64,000 nucleotides of DNA from Candidatus Doudnabacteria bacterium (GTDB lineage: Bacteria; Patescibacteriota; Doudnabacteria; UBA920), in contig CAWBGV010000031.1 in NCBI GenBank assembly GCA_963788395.1, positions 7,116 to 71,115 of the forward strand. The letters are read 5' to 3'. Below the pieces are notes generated by a model that was not told the origin of the DNA, ran no database searches, and worked only from the letters and a program-made list of their open reading frames with translations. Shown here piece after piece: positions 15,011 through 43,677 of the stretch. How positions within the stretch are numbered: position 1 is the first letter of the stretch; the number at the start of each line of letters is the position of its first letter. The position numbers and the translations under genes are program-made.

Positions 15011-15105
15011 GTAGAAAGTTATCAAGTGGAAAGTTATAAAGGAAATGGATTTCAAGATGAATAAGCCCTTATTGCTTGATAACTTTATGCTTGATAACTT
15101 CCAAC
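15011..15105. repeat. AAGTTATNAAG-unit hairpin (family member 1), in the leader of tRNA-Ile
   Basis: The left arm gtagaaagttatcaagtggaaagttataaagg pairs with ccttattgcttgataactttatgcttgataacttccaac. Confidence 0.6.
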
Positions 15106-15136
15106 TTAACTGGAATTATAGCAAATAGCGCTTATT

Positions 15137-15165
15137 TTGACAACTAGTCAAAAATATATTATGCT
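15137..15165 (+). promoter_or_regulatory. Sigma70-type promoter (TTGACA-N17-TATGCT) for the pilM operon
   Basis: -35 at 15137-15142 and -10 at 15160-15165. Confidence 0.4.
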
Positions 15166-15224
15166 GAATATAACATTTCTCTTAAAAAGTCCTGAAATCA
15201 AAATAAATTTAGTCTCCTTTTAGG

Positions 15225-16235
15225 ATGTTCTTCTCCAAAACAAAATCTATTTTAGGAATCGATATCGGTACCTCTAATATTAAAGTAGCGCAAATTTCTC
15301 ATTCTGGACAGCCCTTGCTGGAAACCTATGGAATTGTCAATGTTCCCTATCAAATCGGCACCAAAAACGACGAACGGGTCATAGCCAACATGGGATCCAT
15401 TTTACGGACCCTTATCCAGCGTTCCGGAGCTACCGCCAAGCGCTGTATTATCAGCTTTCCCAATAGTTCCGTGTTTACCTCGGTGGTAGAATTACCTAAA
15501 ATGACCGAAAACGAGCTAAATTCCGCCGTAGAATTTGAGGCAAAAAAATATATTCCCTTAACTTTAAGCGAAGTTGACCTATCCTGGAGTATTATAGCTA
15601 ACACCGGCCAAGATAATATGCAGAAAGTTTTGTTAACTGCTGTACCTAAGCAGGTAACTCAAAACTACATGAAAGTTTTTGAACTGGCCCAACTAGAACC
15701 GGAGGTCGGCGAAATCGAAGCCTTGGCCCTTATTCGATCATTAATCGGAAGCGTTCCCATAAGTTGTGTTATAATTGATATAGGAGCTAAAAGCACCGGG
15801 CTAAATATTATTGAAAATGGTTTTTTGCGGCTTTCCAGAAACCTCAACGTTGGCGGCGATACCGTCACCAATAAAATTGCTCAGTCACTGCACATAAGTA
15901 CAGTACGGGCCGAGCAGTTTAAAAAGGATTTCGGAGTCAGCGGCACAACTTTTATTCCGGAAACGATTAAGCCGGTGCTCGACGTTATAAAAAGTGAAAC
16001 AAAACAGCTGTTAACAATCTACCAATCCCACAACATGCAGGTTGAAAAAGTGCTGTTGGTAGGCGGGGGAGCCAGTCTGCCAGGGATCATTGGCTACTTT
16101 GGTGATTTAGGGGTTAAAATTGAACTTGGTAATCCGCTCCAGGCGATTGGTTACGCGAAAGAGATGGAGCCTGTTCTAAAGCGGTACGCATTAAATCTCC
16201 CGATTGCGATTGGATTAGCCTTGCGCAATGAATAA
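15225..16235 (+). CDS. pilM: Type IV pilus assembly protein PilM (actin-like ATPase fold)
   Basis: ILGIDIGTSNIKVAQI..., a second phosphate motif IIDIGAKSTG, and LLVGGGASLPGI. Confidence 0.85.
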   Translation: MFFSKTKSILGIDIGTSNIKVAQISHSGQPLLETYGIVNVPYQIGTKNDERVIANMGSILRTLIQRSGATAKRCIISFPNSSVFTSVVELPKMTENELNSAVEFEAKKYIPLTLSEVDLSWSIIANTGQDNMQKVLLTAVPKQVTQNYMKVFELAQLEPEVGEIEALALIRSLIGSVPISCVIIDIGAKSTGLNIIENGFLRLSRNLNVGGDTVTNKIAQSLHISTVRAEQFKKDFGVSGTTFIPETIKPVLDVIKSETKQLLTIYQSHNMQVEKVLLVGGGASLPGIIGYFGDLGVKIELGNPLQAIGYAKEMEPVLKRYALNLPIAIGLALRNE

Positions 16236-16276
16236 TAAAATAAAATTAAAAAATATTTCCACTTTCTACTTTTTTC

Positions 16277-16846
16277 ATGCCGCAAATTAATCTTTTAAAA
16301 CAAAGCTCCACCACATCCCACATTATGAGGGGGAGTCTTAATGGAGTTTTGGTTAAAATTTTGGCAGTAGTGTTAGTCGGTGTCTTGGGCTGGTACGCCT
16401 GGATGTTTTTTGAAACCTCTAAAATTTCGGCCAGTAACGACGCCTTAGCTATCCAGATAAGCCAGGAGCAAAACCAATTAAAGAATTTTACGAATCGCAG
16501 CGAAATTTTAACGCGCCAAGCCCAGTTGCAGCAATTTAATACTTTAGTCGAAAATCATATTTACTGGTCAAACCTATTTCCAGAGTTAGCCCGGGTTACT
16601 CTCCAGGGCGCCGATTACACCGCTTTGAACGCTACCAATGACGGCACTATCAACGTTTCGGTTGCCGTACCGAATTTAGTGGACTTGGATAATTTTTTAC
16701 AAGTTTTTGATCTAACCGATATCAATAAAAGTTTTAGCAATTTGACGATTGGTTCGGTCAGTCAAGATAGTATAACCAATACCGTCCGGGTTGACGTTAA
16801 GTTTAATTTTGACACAGGCTTACTTCAATACCACACAGGCAATTAA
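16277..16846 (+). CDS. pilN: Type IV pilus assembly protein PilN-like
   Basis: N-terminal MPQINLL (the INLL motif that binds PilM), a single TM segment, a coiled-coil region, and its position after pilM. Confidence 0.7.
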   Translation: MPQINLLKQSSTTSHIMRGSLNGVLVKILAVVLVGVLGWYAWMFFETSKISASNDALAIQISQEQNQLKNFTNRSEILTRQAQLQQFNTLVENHIYWSNLFPELARVTLQGADYTALNATNDGTINVSVAVPNLVDLDNFLQVFDLTDINKSFSNLTIGSVSQDSITNTVRVDVKFNFDTGLLQYHTGN

Positions 16847-16879
16847 CAGTTCGGGCGCGACAGCGCTTGATTGGAACCT

Positions 16880-41753: not shown

Positions 41754-42032
41754 GTTCACTTTAATGAAATTATTATAGAGAACAATCCGCCGTAGCCTCC
41801 CAACCTAATCTTACATAAACTTAATTAAGACAATAAAAATTTTACCCACAGCTAAACCTATTAGCACGGGCGAAGGCGGATACCCCGCCAAAAGTCAGTT
41901 ATTGTCATTAATTATAAGTTATAGTTTCTCTCTATATACTTACTGCTCACAGATCTCAGCATTCCTTCAAACTTAGGGAATCCAGGCTCGTAGATCCTCT
42001 CGGGGCAGTAGCTATATGGCGGGAATTAGTTA

Positions 42033-42116
42033 GAAAGTTATAAAGTTCGTAAGGTTATAAAGCCTGCAGTTGCAGCCACTTTAAAAACTTTCAACTTTAA
42101 AAACTTTACAACTTTT
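42033..42116 (+). repeat. AAGTTATAAAG-unit hairpin (family member 2) in the 23S leader
   Basis: gaaagttataaagttcgtaaggttataaagc-ctgcagttgcag-ccactttaaaaactttcaactttaaaaactttac. Confidence 0.6.
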
Positions 42117-42337
42117 TCAGCCACGTACTTTAAAAACTGAATAGTAAGTCATCAATCTCAACCAATTTGATGACTTATGGGTAGAAAACATTGTAAATAA
42201 ACCGCTGATGAGACGCTGATATGAACGCGGATTAGACGCTGAAGCAATTCAATTCTAATCTGACAAAATATCGACGCCGAATCATCGGTATACAAAGAAC
42301 ATTGTATCCAAATCAAATAGTAGTTTGGAAGATCATA

Positions 42338-42425
42338 GAAGTTTATAAAGTTATAAAGTTCATAAAGTTTATAAAGTGTTGCAGTAATGCAGTTACTTTA
42401 TAACTTTCAACTTTAAAAACCTTAT
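42338..42425 (+). repeat. AAGTTATAAAG-unit hairpin (family member 3) in the 23S leader
   Basis: gaagtttataaagttataaagttcataaagtttataaagtg-ttgcagtaatgcag-ttactttataactttcaactttaaaaacc. Confidence 0.6.
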
Positions 42426-43194
42426 CAACTAATTTGGTCATCACAAATTGCTAGTCAATTACAAAAGATTAGAACAGACAAGGGTATATGGTGGATGCCT
42501 TGGTAATATGAGCCGATGAAGGACGTTGTAGCCTAACGAAAAGCCTCGGGGAGCTGGCAAACAAGCTTTGATCCGGGGGTGTCCGAATGGGGAAACCTAT
42601 GCACTGGAAGAGTGCATGCCTATATGTCGTGGGATATATAGCGCGGGAACCGTGCGAAGTGAAACATCTCAGTAGCACGTGGAAAATAAATCAATTGTCC
42701 GCCTTTGGCGGACATCGAGATTCCGTTAGTAGTGGCGAGCGAACGCGGATAGATATAGAAATTTATTCGTTGGACGAGTATATAGTAGTGTCCGGCGAAT
42801 AAATATCTATTAGCCCAAACCTAATTAGTGTTGTTGATATCGCAAGATTGAAACTTAAAGATTACAGTCGTTGTTAATTAGGCGTTATAAGTGGAAGTCA
42901 TTGTGAGGCTGTAACCTCACTGGGAATATAGTGTGCTGTTTAGCAGAACACGCCTGGAACGGCGGACCAAAGAGGGTGATAGTCCCGTATCGCGAAAAAC
43001 CATGCAATTTCCTGACTTTTTCTTGAGTACGACCAGACACGAGAAATCTGGTCGGAAATCAGGTCGACTAAGATCTAAGGCTAAATACTCATATTAACCG
43101 ATAGTGAACAAGTACCGTGAGGGAAAGGTGAAAAGCACCCCGGAAGGGGAATGAAATAGTTTCTGAAACCATATACTTACAAGGAGTGGAAGGC

Positions 43195-43460
43195 CGTATT
43201 CGTGTTGCGGGTTAGAAGTCTTAAGTTAGATTTTATAGCTAGTGCAAGAATTAGGTTTTTGAGAAGAATTAACCTAATTATTCTAATTTCTAATTAACCT
43301 AAATAATACCCAATATTGAAATGTCTAAAATTAGGACATTCTGATATTGTGATTTGTTTAGAAATTAGGTCAATTAGAATAATTAGAAATTTTGTCCAAT
43401 GAATTTTGCACGAGCGATAAAGTTTAATATTTAGGAAATCTTACCCGTAGCACGAATGGC
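43195..43460 (+). other. 23S expansion segment: ~250-nt AT-rich rod (TTCTAA/TTAGAA units) replacing a short hairpin (probably the helix 25 region)
   Basis: ccgtattcgtgttgcggg...cccgtagcacgaatgg closes the rod. The interior has ctaattattctaatttctaattaacctaaat ... atttgtttagaaattaggtcaattagaataattagaaatt. Confidence 0.7.
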
Positions 43461-43566
43461 TAACCGCGTGCCTATTGAAGAATGATCCAACGAGTTAATC
43501 TTCAGCAGCTTGATTAAGTCCTATCAAGGACGAAATCGTAGTGAAAGCGAGGATGAATAGTCCGTA

Positions 43567-43677
43567 AAAGTTTATAAAGTTCTTAAAGTTAGTAAAGTTC
43601 ATAAAGTAACTGCAGCAATGCCGGTACTTTATAACTTGATGAACTTGACGAACTTTATAAACTTTATGTTGCTGGAG
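43567..43677 (+). repeat. AAGTTATAAAG-unit hairpin (family member 4) inserted inside 23S rRNA
   Basis: aaaagtttataaagttcttaaagttagtaaagttcataaagta-actgcagcaatgccgg-tactttataacttgatgaacttgacgaactttataaactttat. It lies just upstream of the conserved gttagacccgaaaccc block. Confidence 0.7.

Follow-up and report, generated by a model that had tools for sequence, protein, structure and literature searches.

Tandem-unit hairpins in the tRNA-Ile and 23S rRNA transcripts of a Doudnabacteria-like genome: probable stem-only copies of a palindromic element of the intervening-sequence type

The window analysed here, a stretch of 64,000 nt from contig CAWBGV010000031.1 (positions 7,116 to 71,115), contains four long hairpins assembled from closely similar tandem units: one in the leader of tRNA-Ile, two in the leader of the 23S rRNA and one inside the 23S rRNA gene. 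The question raised by this locus is whether such hairpins serve the maturation of the RNAs in which they lie, bind a protein, have grown in place or have been inserted. A previous interpretation, referred to as the sequence-only reading, had left the choice between RNase III-type processing platforms, protein-binding sites and a selfish hairpin. The closest named homologues of window proteins belong to 'Candidatus Doudnabacteria' (65-66% identity for an IRK-like K+ channel, 69-70% for PilM) and the host is therefore a bacterium of the Candidate Phyla Radiation (CPR), or Patescibacteria. A cyanobacterial or Beggiatoa origin, initially suggested by the heptamer hairpins, was discarded in view of the closest proteins and of the synteny, both of which point to Doudnabacteria-like CPR. 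The four hairpins, designated el1 to el4, are probably stem-only copies, devoid of an open reading frame (ORF), of a palindromic insertion element of the intervening-sequence (IVS) type, named 'AAAGT-arm element' hereafter. Rather than signals designed for processing, they seem to be selfish inserts that the 23S and tRNA transcripts tolerate. Their locations, which agree with those proposed earlier, are as follows.

15008..15108, minus strand: el1, AAGTTAT/CAAG-unit hairpin forming most of the tRNA-Ile leader, between promoter and tRNA-Ile; arms 15008-15044 and 15072-15108, 78% complementary
42028..42121, plus strand: el2, AAAGTT-unit hairpin in the 23S leader, with a boxA-like sequence directly 3'
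42338..42431, plus strand: el3, AAAGTT-unit hairpin with TGCAGTAATGCAG apex, immediately 5' of the 23S processing stem
43564..43671, plus strand: el4, hairpin with five AAAGTT units per arm in 23S domain II, around E. coli positions 645-655

The repeat unit and the folding of the four hairpins

All four elements are long imperfect hairpins in which three to five tandem 9-nt units (AAAGTTYRT) face the complementary series. The unit described earlier, AAGTT(N)ATAAAG, is consistent with this period, which is detected by Tandem Repeats Finder in el3 and el4 (AAAGTTCAT / AACTTGATG). Comparison of the RNA minimum free energies with those of 200 dinucleotide shuffles gave z-scores of -3.9 for el1 (minus strand), -3.6 for el2, -4.6 for el3 and -7.05 for el4. 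The existence of four long hairpins at these coordinates is thus confirmed, and folding no better than that of shuffled sequences can be dismissed. The stems, AU-rich and roughly 30-45 bp long, display the long-stem terminal inverted repeat that characterizes an IVS. No Rfam intron model matches any of the four elements, which are plain hairpins of 85-110 nt.

Within the window, the AAAGTTNNNAAAGTT pattern with at most one mismatch is found 15 times against 1.0 expected, 13 of the matches being located in el2-el4, and a 23-nt three-unit consensus searched on both strands with up to four mismatches matches el2, el3 and el4 only (about 0.1 match per shuffle). The TGCAG-type apex formerly attributed to three elements is indeed common to el2-el4. 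A covariance model was built from 26 family members including these three window copies, which obtain 41-60 bits as part of the training set (45 for el2, 41-44 for el3). Applied to the entire 64 kb with filters off, the model returns nothing beyond el1-el4, el1 with a low score that is considered below. El2, el3 and el4 are members of one family.

Maintenance of these structures by pairing, with arms that would differ mostly by transitions, had also been proposed and does not withstand examination. Arm-against-arm differences amount to 9 transitions, 19 transversions and 21 gap positions, and no covariation beyond conservation is detected across the 26 family members. The hexamer AAAGTT/AACTTT is conserved and paired across the family; in the 3-nt linker, by contrast, about 45% of the cells are without a pairing partner. 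With the arm pairing imposed by hand on the 26 hairpin cores, 78% of the cells are paired, no more than in column shuffles. RNAalifold predicted no structure from a MAFFT alignment of these cores, a result ascribed to register problems in the alignment.

Copies of the family in other genomes and the associated PF05635 gene

A collection of 185,579 species genomes was scanned with a three-unit pattern, yielding at least 120 loci, a count that is not an abundance estimate. The matches listed are of two kinds: one-arm arrays, and true hairpins, whose carriers are for the most part Patescibacteria from many phyla, with a few Bacteroidota. A metagenome scan for the arms together with the TGCAG apex returned 14 loci. 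Polarity is fixed: among the matches listed, 45 hairpins read AAAGT..loop..ACTTT and none is reversed. In a control made of viral contigs, the three-unit pattern occurs at 111 loci, with only one AAAGT..loop..ACTTT hairpin and two in the reverse order.

The proposal that the family marks stable RNAs, or targets rRNA and tRNA operons, does not hold generally. Most copies elsewhere, among the matches listed, occupy short spacers between protein genes, 5-20 nt from the flanking stop or start codons, in co-directional, convergent and divergent contexts alike. Several CPR loci contain 2-4 copies per 8 kb, in the multi-copy, dispersed and intergenic arrangement typical of miniature inverted-repeat transposable elements (MITEs) and repetitive extragenic palindromes (REPs). 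Ribosomal RNA operons are apparently over-represented, with copies clustered in three of them: four in L033 (Magasanikiibacteriota), located in the 16S leader, at two 16S-internal sites (one at the tip of h44) and directly before tRNA-Ile; three in a single 23S of L134, at the H25, H45 and H68 sites; and two in L133, in the 16S leader and the helix-6 region. One further copy lies in 23S domain I of L089 (Campbellbacteria). The element occupies positions that tolerate extra RNA, namely operon spacers, rRNA and tRNA leaders and rRNA helix sites; rRNA and tRNA operons provide many such tolerated, highly transcribed sites and are not its specific target.

Copies within one genome resemble each other, as illustrated by the AAAGTC/GACTTT variant common to the copies of L033 and to those of L133, and their unit number drifts by slippage. 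Copies are also gained, lost or replaced between relatives. In the strain pair L130/L136 (84-94% identity in aligned blocks), one hairpin differs by a single 9-nt unit, one spacer is replaced and a palindrome of about 100 nt is present in one strain and absent from the other. This palindrome (AAAGTTTCCTGCAAAGATTTTC...GAAAATCTTTGCAGGAAACTTT) lies between two genes of L130 (5485-5596); at the corresponding place in L136 (4790-4798), stop and start codons are 8 nt apart.

One-arm tandem arrays from Bacteroidales and Ignavibacteria, often located at contig ends, were set aside as a different or unassembled arrangement. Long one-arm arrays of the family's own 9-nt unit, with an apparent 27-nt period, are present in L009, L020, L022, L025, L040, L079, L080 and others (Ignavibacteriaceae and Bacteroidales metagenome-assembled genomes); these could be satellite arrays, or palindromes of which one half is missing from the assembly.

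AAAGT-unit arms surround an ORF of the PF05635 family at nine independent loci. In L048, the 345 nt between the arms contain a 113-aa ORF with a match to PF05635, '23S rRNA-intervening sequence protein', at E = 5.7e-33. The same layout is displayed by L035, where the ORF is truncated, L054, where it is frameshifted and the AAAGT units are 7 nt long, and L091 (Paludibacter). As a test, five homologues of the L048 protein (68-73% identity) were picked solely by protein similarity and contig count from a family with over 6000 CPR members annotated as 'four helix bundle proteins'. All five genes possess inverted AAAGT-unit arms on both sides and are squeezed into spacers of operons, where their neighbours are two MacB permease genes, the genes of PrgI/TraC/TraG clusters, or Wzy and an epimerase gene. 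No tandem-unit arms can be recognised around the PF05635 homologues of L066 and L080; the association of arms and gene is the property of a subfamily, not of all PF05635 genes. No recurrent cargo other than PF05635 is found between arm pairs; the other arm 'pairs' examined as cargo carriers probably represent two distinct hairpins with ordinary genes in between.

The element can be briefly described as follows. Its full form consists of a 5' arm of AAAGT(T/C)YRT units, a PF05635 four-helix-bundle gene and a complementary 3' arm; its short form retains the arms and a small GC-clamped apex only. PF05635 is the family of the IVS protein S23p of Xanthomonas, Coxiella and Leptospira (PMC4990558), and it is related to Avd, the accessory protein of diversity-generating retroelements (PMC10053308). 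No prior description of such an element was found in the literature on CPR hairpins or on compensatory slippage, and a full-text query with the unit sequence returned nothing relevant.

Occupied and empty sites in the tRNA-Ile and 23S transcripts

The transcription unit that contains el1 comprises the following features.

15115..15143, minus strand: tRNA-Ile/tRNA-Ala promoter TTGTCA-17-TGnTATAAT, 11/12 match, conserved in L280
14903-14979, minus strand: tRNA-Ile(GAU) (Rfam, ARAGORN)
14321-14394, minus strand: tRNA-Ala(UGC) (Rfam, ARAGORN)

El1 starts a few nucleotides past the predicted transcription start and ends 31 nt ahead of tRNA-Ile. Locus L280, from the same genome as L123, conserves the tRNA-Ala / tRNA-Ile / pilM synteny and both divergent promoters. 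The distance from the -10 box to tRNA-Ile is 13 nt in L280 versus 135 nt in the window, el1 included. El1 is therefore a lineage-specific insertion, its site being empty in a syntenic relative in spite of the conserved promoters. The spacer between the two tRNAs (14395-14902, 508 nt) has its own peculiarities. A hairpin with 43-bp arms (14397-14493) abuts tRNA-Ala, and some 345 nt of GC-rich sequence (14560-14905), which fold strongly (-100 kcal/mol), are without Rfam match; a permissive Rfam search over the tRNA locus gave generic hairpin (miRNA-precursor) matches only, well below gathering scores.

In order to examine the 23S leader, the window was aligned with three syntenic relatives, L123, L124 and L126. 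The features concerned are listed below.

42126..42143, plus strand: boxA-like sequence ACTTTAAAAACTGAATAG, conserved in the window, L124 and L126 and partly in L123
42436..42459, plus strand: 5' strand of the 23S leader-trailer processing stem, co-folding with 47701-47724; GGTCRTCACAAATTGCTAGTCAA in all four genomes
42467-47699, plus strand: 23S rRNA gene (Rfam), 5233 nt against a 2925-position model, with about 2.3 kb of insertions
47701..47724, plus strand: 3' strand of the processing stem, co-folding with 42436-42459
48099-48215, plus strand: 5S rRNA (Rfam)

The leader is organized in the order promoter (41601-41629), 14-codon ORF and terminator, a block of about 85 nt, el2, boxA-like sequence, semi-conserved stems and processing stem. 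El3 has no counterpart in L123, L124 or L126 and is for this reason regarded as a second lineage-specific insertion. Its 3' end is separated by about 6-10 nt from the processing stem's leader strand, and it is flanked by an imperfect direct repeat, TAGTAGTTTGGAAGATCA (42318-42335) and ACTAATTTGGTCATCA (42427-42442), of which L123 possesses a single copy (ACTAGTTTGGTCGTCA); this repeat may be a target duplication. With el1 and el3 missing from relatives, the family has the sporadic presence among close relatives expected of an IVS. Between el2 and el3, a CGCTGA motif is repeated 3.5 times with 11-nt spacing (42203-42242).

These empty sites bear directly on the possibility that the hairpins are processing platforms beneficial to the host, i.e. 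entry sites dedicated to RNase III or another RNase, or folding chaperones, kept by selection for the maturation of tRNA-Ile and 23S. In favor of it, stable-RNA transcripts contain all four window copies, the length of the stems would suffice for RNase III, the el2 and el4 positions hold some hairpin in every relative, and L033, an unrelated locus, also has a hairpin just ahead of tRNA-Ile. Against these points, el1 and el3 are missing in relatives in which the same promoters drive the same genes. The 23S is already bracketed by a canonical leader-trailer stem that is conserved, and consequently an RNase III platform is not needed for its maturation. The lack of covariation, with some 45% of the cells unpaired at the variable positions, and the location of copies elsewhere, mostly in protein-gene spacers and with a selfish-looking ORF, point in the same direction. 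Given the empty sites and the conserved processing stem, a dedicated processing role is quite unlikely. RNase III could plausibly act as the host's means of disposing of the inserts.

The position of el2 requires a separate discussion. Each relative has a hairpin there, made from different units. ACTTTAAAAACTGAATAG, which resembles the boxA of rRNA operons, follows el2, and a hairpin immediately upstream of the conserved boxA-like (A/T)CTTTAAAAACTGAATAG is found in the window, L124 and L126, in the case of el2 only among the four elements. Within its 3' arm, el2 repeats the adjacent boxA-like sequence twice in slightly altered form (ACTTTAAAAACTT), and the 3'-arm unit of the family, CUUUAYRAA, resembles the boxA core. 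It could thus be imagined that the units are arrays of RNA or DNA sites for NusB/S10 or for the pentameric PF05635 protein, serving antitermination control or the sequestering or delivery of the protein. The strict conservation of the 6-nt AAAGTT/AACTTT core next to a variable, often unpaired 3-nt linker, the fixed polarity, the boxA-like neighbour of el2 and its near-copies, and the physical linkage of the arms to a gene related to that of Avd, a protein that binds nucleic acid, would all suit such arrays. BoxA, in contrast, acts single-stranded, whereas pairing would mask it here; relatives differ freely in the number of copies and in their position, and the window contains no PF05635 gene; we regard this explanation as very doubtful.

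Further upstream, a block of about 85 nt ending just before el2 (41938-42022) is strongly conserved in the four genomes (TACTGCTCACAGATCTCAGCATTCC...GGGAAT.CAGGCTCG...GGGCAGTAG) and apparently structured, without Rfam match. The segment 41601-41755 contains, in all four Doudnabacteria-like genomes, a sigma70-like promoter (CTTGACA-17-TAnAAT), the 14-codon ORF (MLKITLELTKQRFM*), whose C-terminal (K/Q)RFM is conserved, and a conserved intrinsic terminator (CCGCGAAAGCGG followed by T7). This unit has the appearance of an attenuator with a leader peptide, or of a small gene that precedes the rRNA.

The 23S gene was mapped by means of BLAST and Rfam alignments to E. coli, the helix assignments being approximate. 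Hairpin-type inserts are found near E. coli positions 228, 262-419, 540 (H25), about 650, 1160-1240 (H45), 1680-1770 and 2790. In addition to el4, the following inserts were located; at least five are hairpins made from other units.

42755-42810 and 44890-45330, plus strand: further other-unit hairpin inserts
43195..43460, plus strand: other-unit long hairpin (AATTAACCT/TTAGAAATT) at the helix-25 site, a classical IVS site
44165..44420, plus strand: long hairpin insertion in the helix-45 region, also a classical IVS region
45462-46199, plus strand: intron-sized insert at E. coli 1917/1918, with a LAGLIDADG ORF (45556-46023)
46782-47215, plus strand: intron-sized, ORF-less insert at E. coli 2500/2501, from the map against E. 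coli 23S
47556..47625, plus strand: heptamer-unit hairpin insertion near E. coli position 2790

El4 is flanked by GATGAATAGTCCG and TTGCTGGAGTTAGACCCGAAAC and corresponds to a 104-nt insertion placed by Rfam at model position ~686. It lies inside the 23S at a site that is not classical for an IVS; el1-el3 are outside mature rRNA. The el4 site of L123, L124 and L126 holds in each case a long hairpin of other material, based on GAATTATGA/AGTATGA units in L123, on AAGAGAT/TAGTGA in L124 and on a non-repeat stem in L126, above a stem base, GUAAAAG..CUUUAUG, that is conserved across the relatives. The AAAGTT unit itself is absent from these three syntenic relatives, and the motif is also absent from L280. 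As hairpins of other units stand at the same places in relatives, el2 and el4 are considered to be replacements at hairpin-tolerant sites. In an insertion of the L123 23S, between E. coli 1679 and 1773, a tRNA-Lys(CTT) gene is predicted by Rfam and ARAGORN (15299-15374 of L123).

The diversity of units at a fixed site is also what would be seen if the hairpins had grown in place from small stems, by compensatory slippage on both arms and without mobility, as in eukaryotic rRNA expansion segments, the shared unit then being due to convergence or gene conversion. Copy-number differences of one unit between strains agree with local growth of this kind, as do the resemblance of the conserved stem base to the unit and the repetition of the adjacent boxA-like motif in the 3' arm of el2. 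A comparable variation in the number of tandem heptamers is known in the Coxiella IVS (PMC4990558). Convergence fails, on the other hand, to account for the 45:0 polarity among the matches listed. The same arms with a similar apex stand at four unrelated sites of one genome and the same arms surround PF05635 genes in many phyla, and clean insertions are observed where relatives are hairpin-free. Local slippage in place of insertion is accordingly unlikely.

Mode of spread, known elements and surroundings of the locus

The selfish option of the sequence-only reading is the one favored by these data: el1 and el3 are absent in relatives, the family is multi-copy and sporadic with fixed polarity, and a PF05635 gene stands between the arms at nine loci. 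According to the mechanism that we envisage for the AAAGT-arm element, the transcribed arms would pair into a 30-45-bp AU-rich stem that would be cut by RNase III. The leader copies would leave with the leader, and el4 would be excised in the manner of a classical IVS, fragmenting the 23S. Excision would make the insertions nearly neutral. Active spread of the element is suggested by its distribution and by gain and loss between relatives, from which mobility is inferred because neither a transposase nor a clear target duplication is available.

A number of points weigh against this explanation. El1 is a weak family member, with 15 bits and an E value of about 1.9 under the covariance model against 41-60 bits for el2-el4; the single family of four that had been announced thus stands for three elements, with el1 as a divergent member. 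Its AAGTTATCAAG variant is also present in L029, L129 and L131. The window copies are ORF-less, the PF05635 gene is absent from the window, and no RNase III gene was found among the scanned window ORFs. No transposase lies between arm pairs up to 2.5 kb apart, a search that did not extend to whole genomes. No convincing target-site duplication was found, the imperfect repeat at el3 being the only candidate; none is evident at el1, at the PF05635-carrying elements or at the L130 palindrome. As the AAAGTT motif served as the seed for the scans of the collections, their scope is that motif, not its share among tandem-unit hairpins. Finally, the placement of all four copies in stable-RNA loci (p ~0.05-0.13) hints mildly at a preference for such sites, for which pure neutrality gives no account; this placement is weak evidence, since the non-coding DNA of the window is divided into about 7.7 kb in stable-RNA loci versus about 5.1 kb elsewhere.

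A bolder reading may also be formulated. The AAAGT-arm hairpins could be the non-autonomous form of an unrecognised class of mobile elements whose sole gene is the Avd-like PF05635, the pentameric protein recognising the 9-nt units as RNA or single-stranded DNA and promoting the copying of the element into transcribed spacers and rRNA helix tips. Such a class would explain the fixed polarity, the presence of three to five units in each arm and the association of the arms with the gene, and would provide a function for the IVS protein and a mechanism for IVS spread. We regard it as speculative and hold it to be improbable.

Several known systems resemble the AAAGT-arm element in part. In the Coxiella IVS, RNase III cuts a stem of terminal inverted repeats, the S23p ORF is decaying and the tandem heptamers vary between strains (PMC4990558). 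With the bacterial rRNA IVS of Salmonella, Leptospira and Coxiella, the element shares the long inverted-repeat stem, the location in variable rRNA helices (el4; H25, H45 and H68 in L134), an optional and often decaying PF05635 ORF, a sporadic distribution and strain-variable short tandem repeats in the stem region. It differs from them in that its arms consist almost wholly of one reiterated 9-nt unit with fixed polarity, that copies also occur in rRNA and tRNA leaders and protein-operon spacers, and that the el4 site is non-classical. RNase III cuts IVS out without religation and leaves fragmented rRNA, a fate that el4 would share. In CPR bacteria, Tsurumaki et al. (2024) found PF05635 ORFs in rRNA insertions and left short, ORF-less, non-intron insertions uncharacterised, with the guess that they are IVS (PMC11270868). 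The window copies are comparable to the latter in host group and in being ORF-less, non-intron, below 200 bp and suspected IVS. That catalogue, unlike the present family, is limited to insertions of at least 100 bp inside rRNA genes and does not include a sequence architecture, a shared unit, leader and intergenic copies or the link between arms and PF05635.

Palindromic repeats of intergenic regions constitute another term of comparison, represented by REPs together with bacterial interspersed mosaic elements (BIMEs) and REPINs, by the Correia elements, also called NEMIS, and by MITEs; Correia elements are RNase III substrates. As with these, the AAAGT-arm copies are multi-copy imperfect palindromes that exactly fill transcribed operon spacers and exist in long and short forms. 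Their arms, in contrast, are tandem arrays instead of unique sequence, the only recurrent cargo is a small four-helix-bundle protein, and they lack an established target-site duplication. We know of no REP-associated tyrosine transposase (RAYT) or other transposase partner of the element. The cryptically simple expansion segments of eukaryotic rRNA, reported by Hancock and Dover to evolve by compensatory slippage, share with it a short tandem motif in one arm facing its complement in the other, fast evolution at fixed rRNA sites and slippage in unit number; the AAAGT-arm sequence also occurs outside rRNA, encloses a gene in some copies and has strict polarity. Lastly, el2 resembles the boxB-boxA antitermination arrangement of rRNA operon leaders, in that its hairpin immediately precedes the conserved boxA-like sequence of the 23S leader and, like boxB, is not conserved in sequence among relatives; el1, el3 and el4 are devoid of a boxA context.

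The origin and mobility of rRNA intervening sequences and the role of S23p/PF05635 in them are questions that have stood since the early 1990s. One sequence family now unites short CPR rRNA insertions, hairpins of rRNA and tRNA leaders and intergenic palindromes of CPR operons, which were formerly treated apart. The family has a recognisable full-length form with a PF05635 gene and a searchable signature, AAAGTYYRT arms of fixed polarity, usable for genome-wide censuses, for gain and loss analysis and for the definition of RNase III and PF05635-binding substrates; some of the carriers are cultured Bacteroidota, for example Butyricimonas muris GBG-M4 (L046) and Plebeiibacterium marinum D04 (L086). 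The inserts inflate CPR rRNA, probably fragment it and likely break assemblies.

Concerning the surroundings of the hairpins, the rRNA operon is split. The tRNA-Ile and tRNA-Ala genes form a minus-strand unit driven by its own promoter (14321-15143), located 27 kb from the plus-strand 23S-5S genes, and no 16S gene is detected by Rfam within the 64-kb window. The split arrangement of tRNAs and 23S-5S is kept in the relative on contig_24013 (L123/L280). The genes around these RNA genes encode type IV pilus components and secreted proteins of large size. The assertion that no hairpin of the family lies in mRNA space is valid for this motif in this window; it does not extend to other units, as protein-gene spacers at 594-654, 10343-10534, 20011-20090 and 22540-22700 are occupied by hairpins made from other tandem units (AATAGTG, AGTATGA, TTCTAAA) or by long perfect palindromes. 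The AATAGTG and AGTATGA units reappear in 23S-internal hairpins of L124 and L123; more than one family of units thus seems to move between sites and between genomes. Beyond the rRNA genes on their 3' side, very large secreted proteins with CAP domains contain many hexanucleotide repeats of the Thr/Pro type (ACTCCA, ACACCT and others) between 49552 and 57024.

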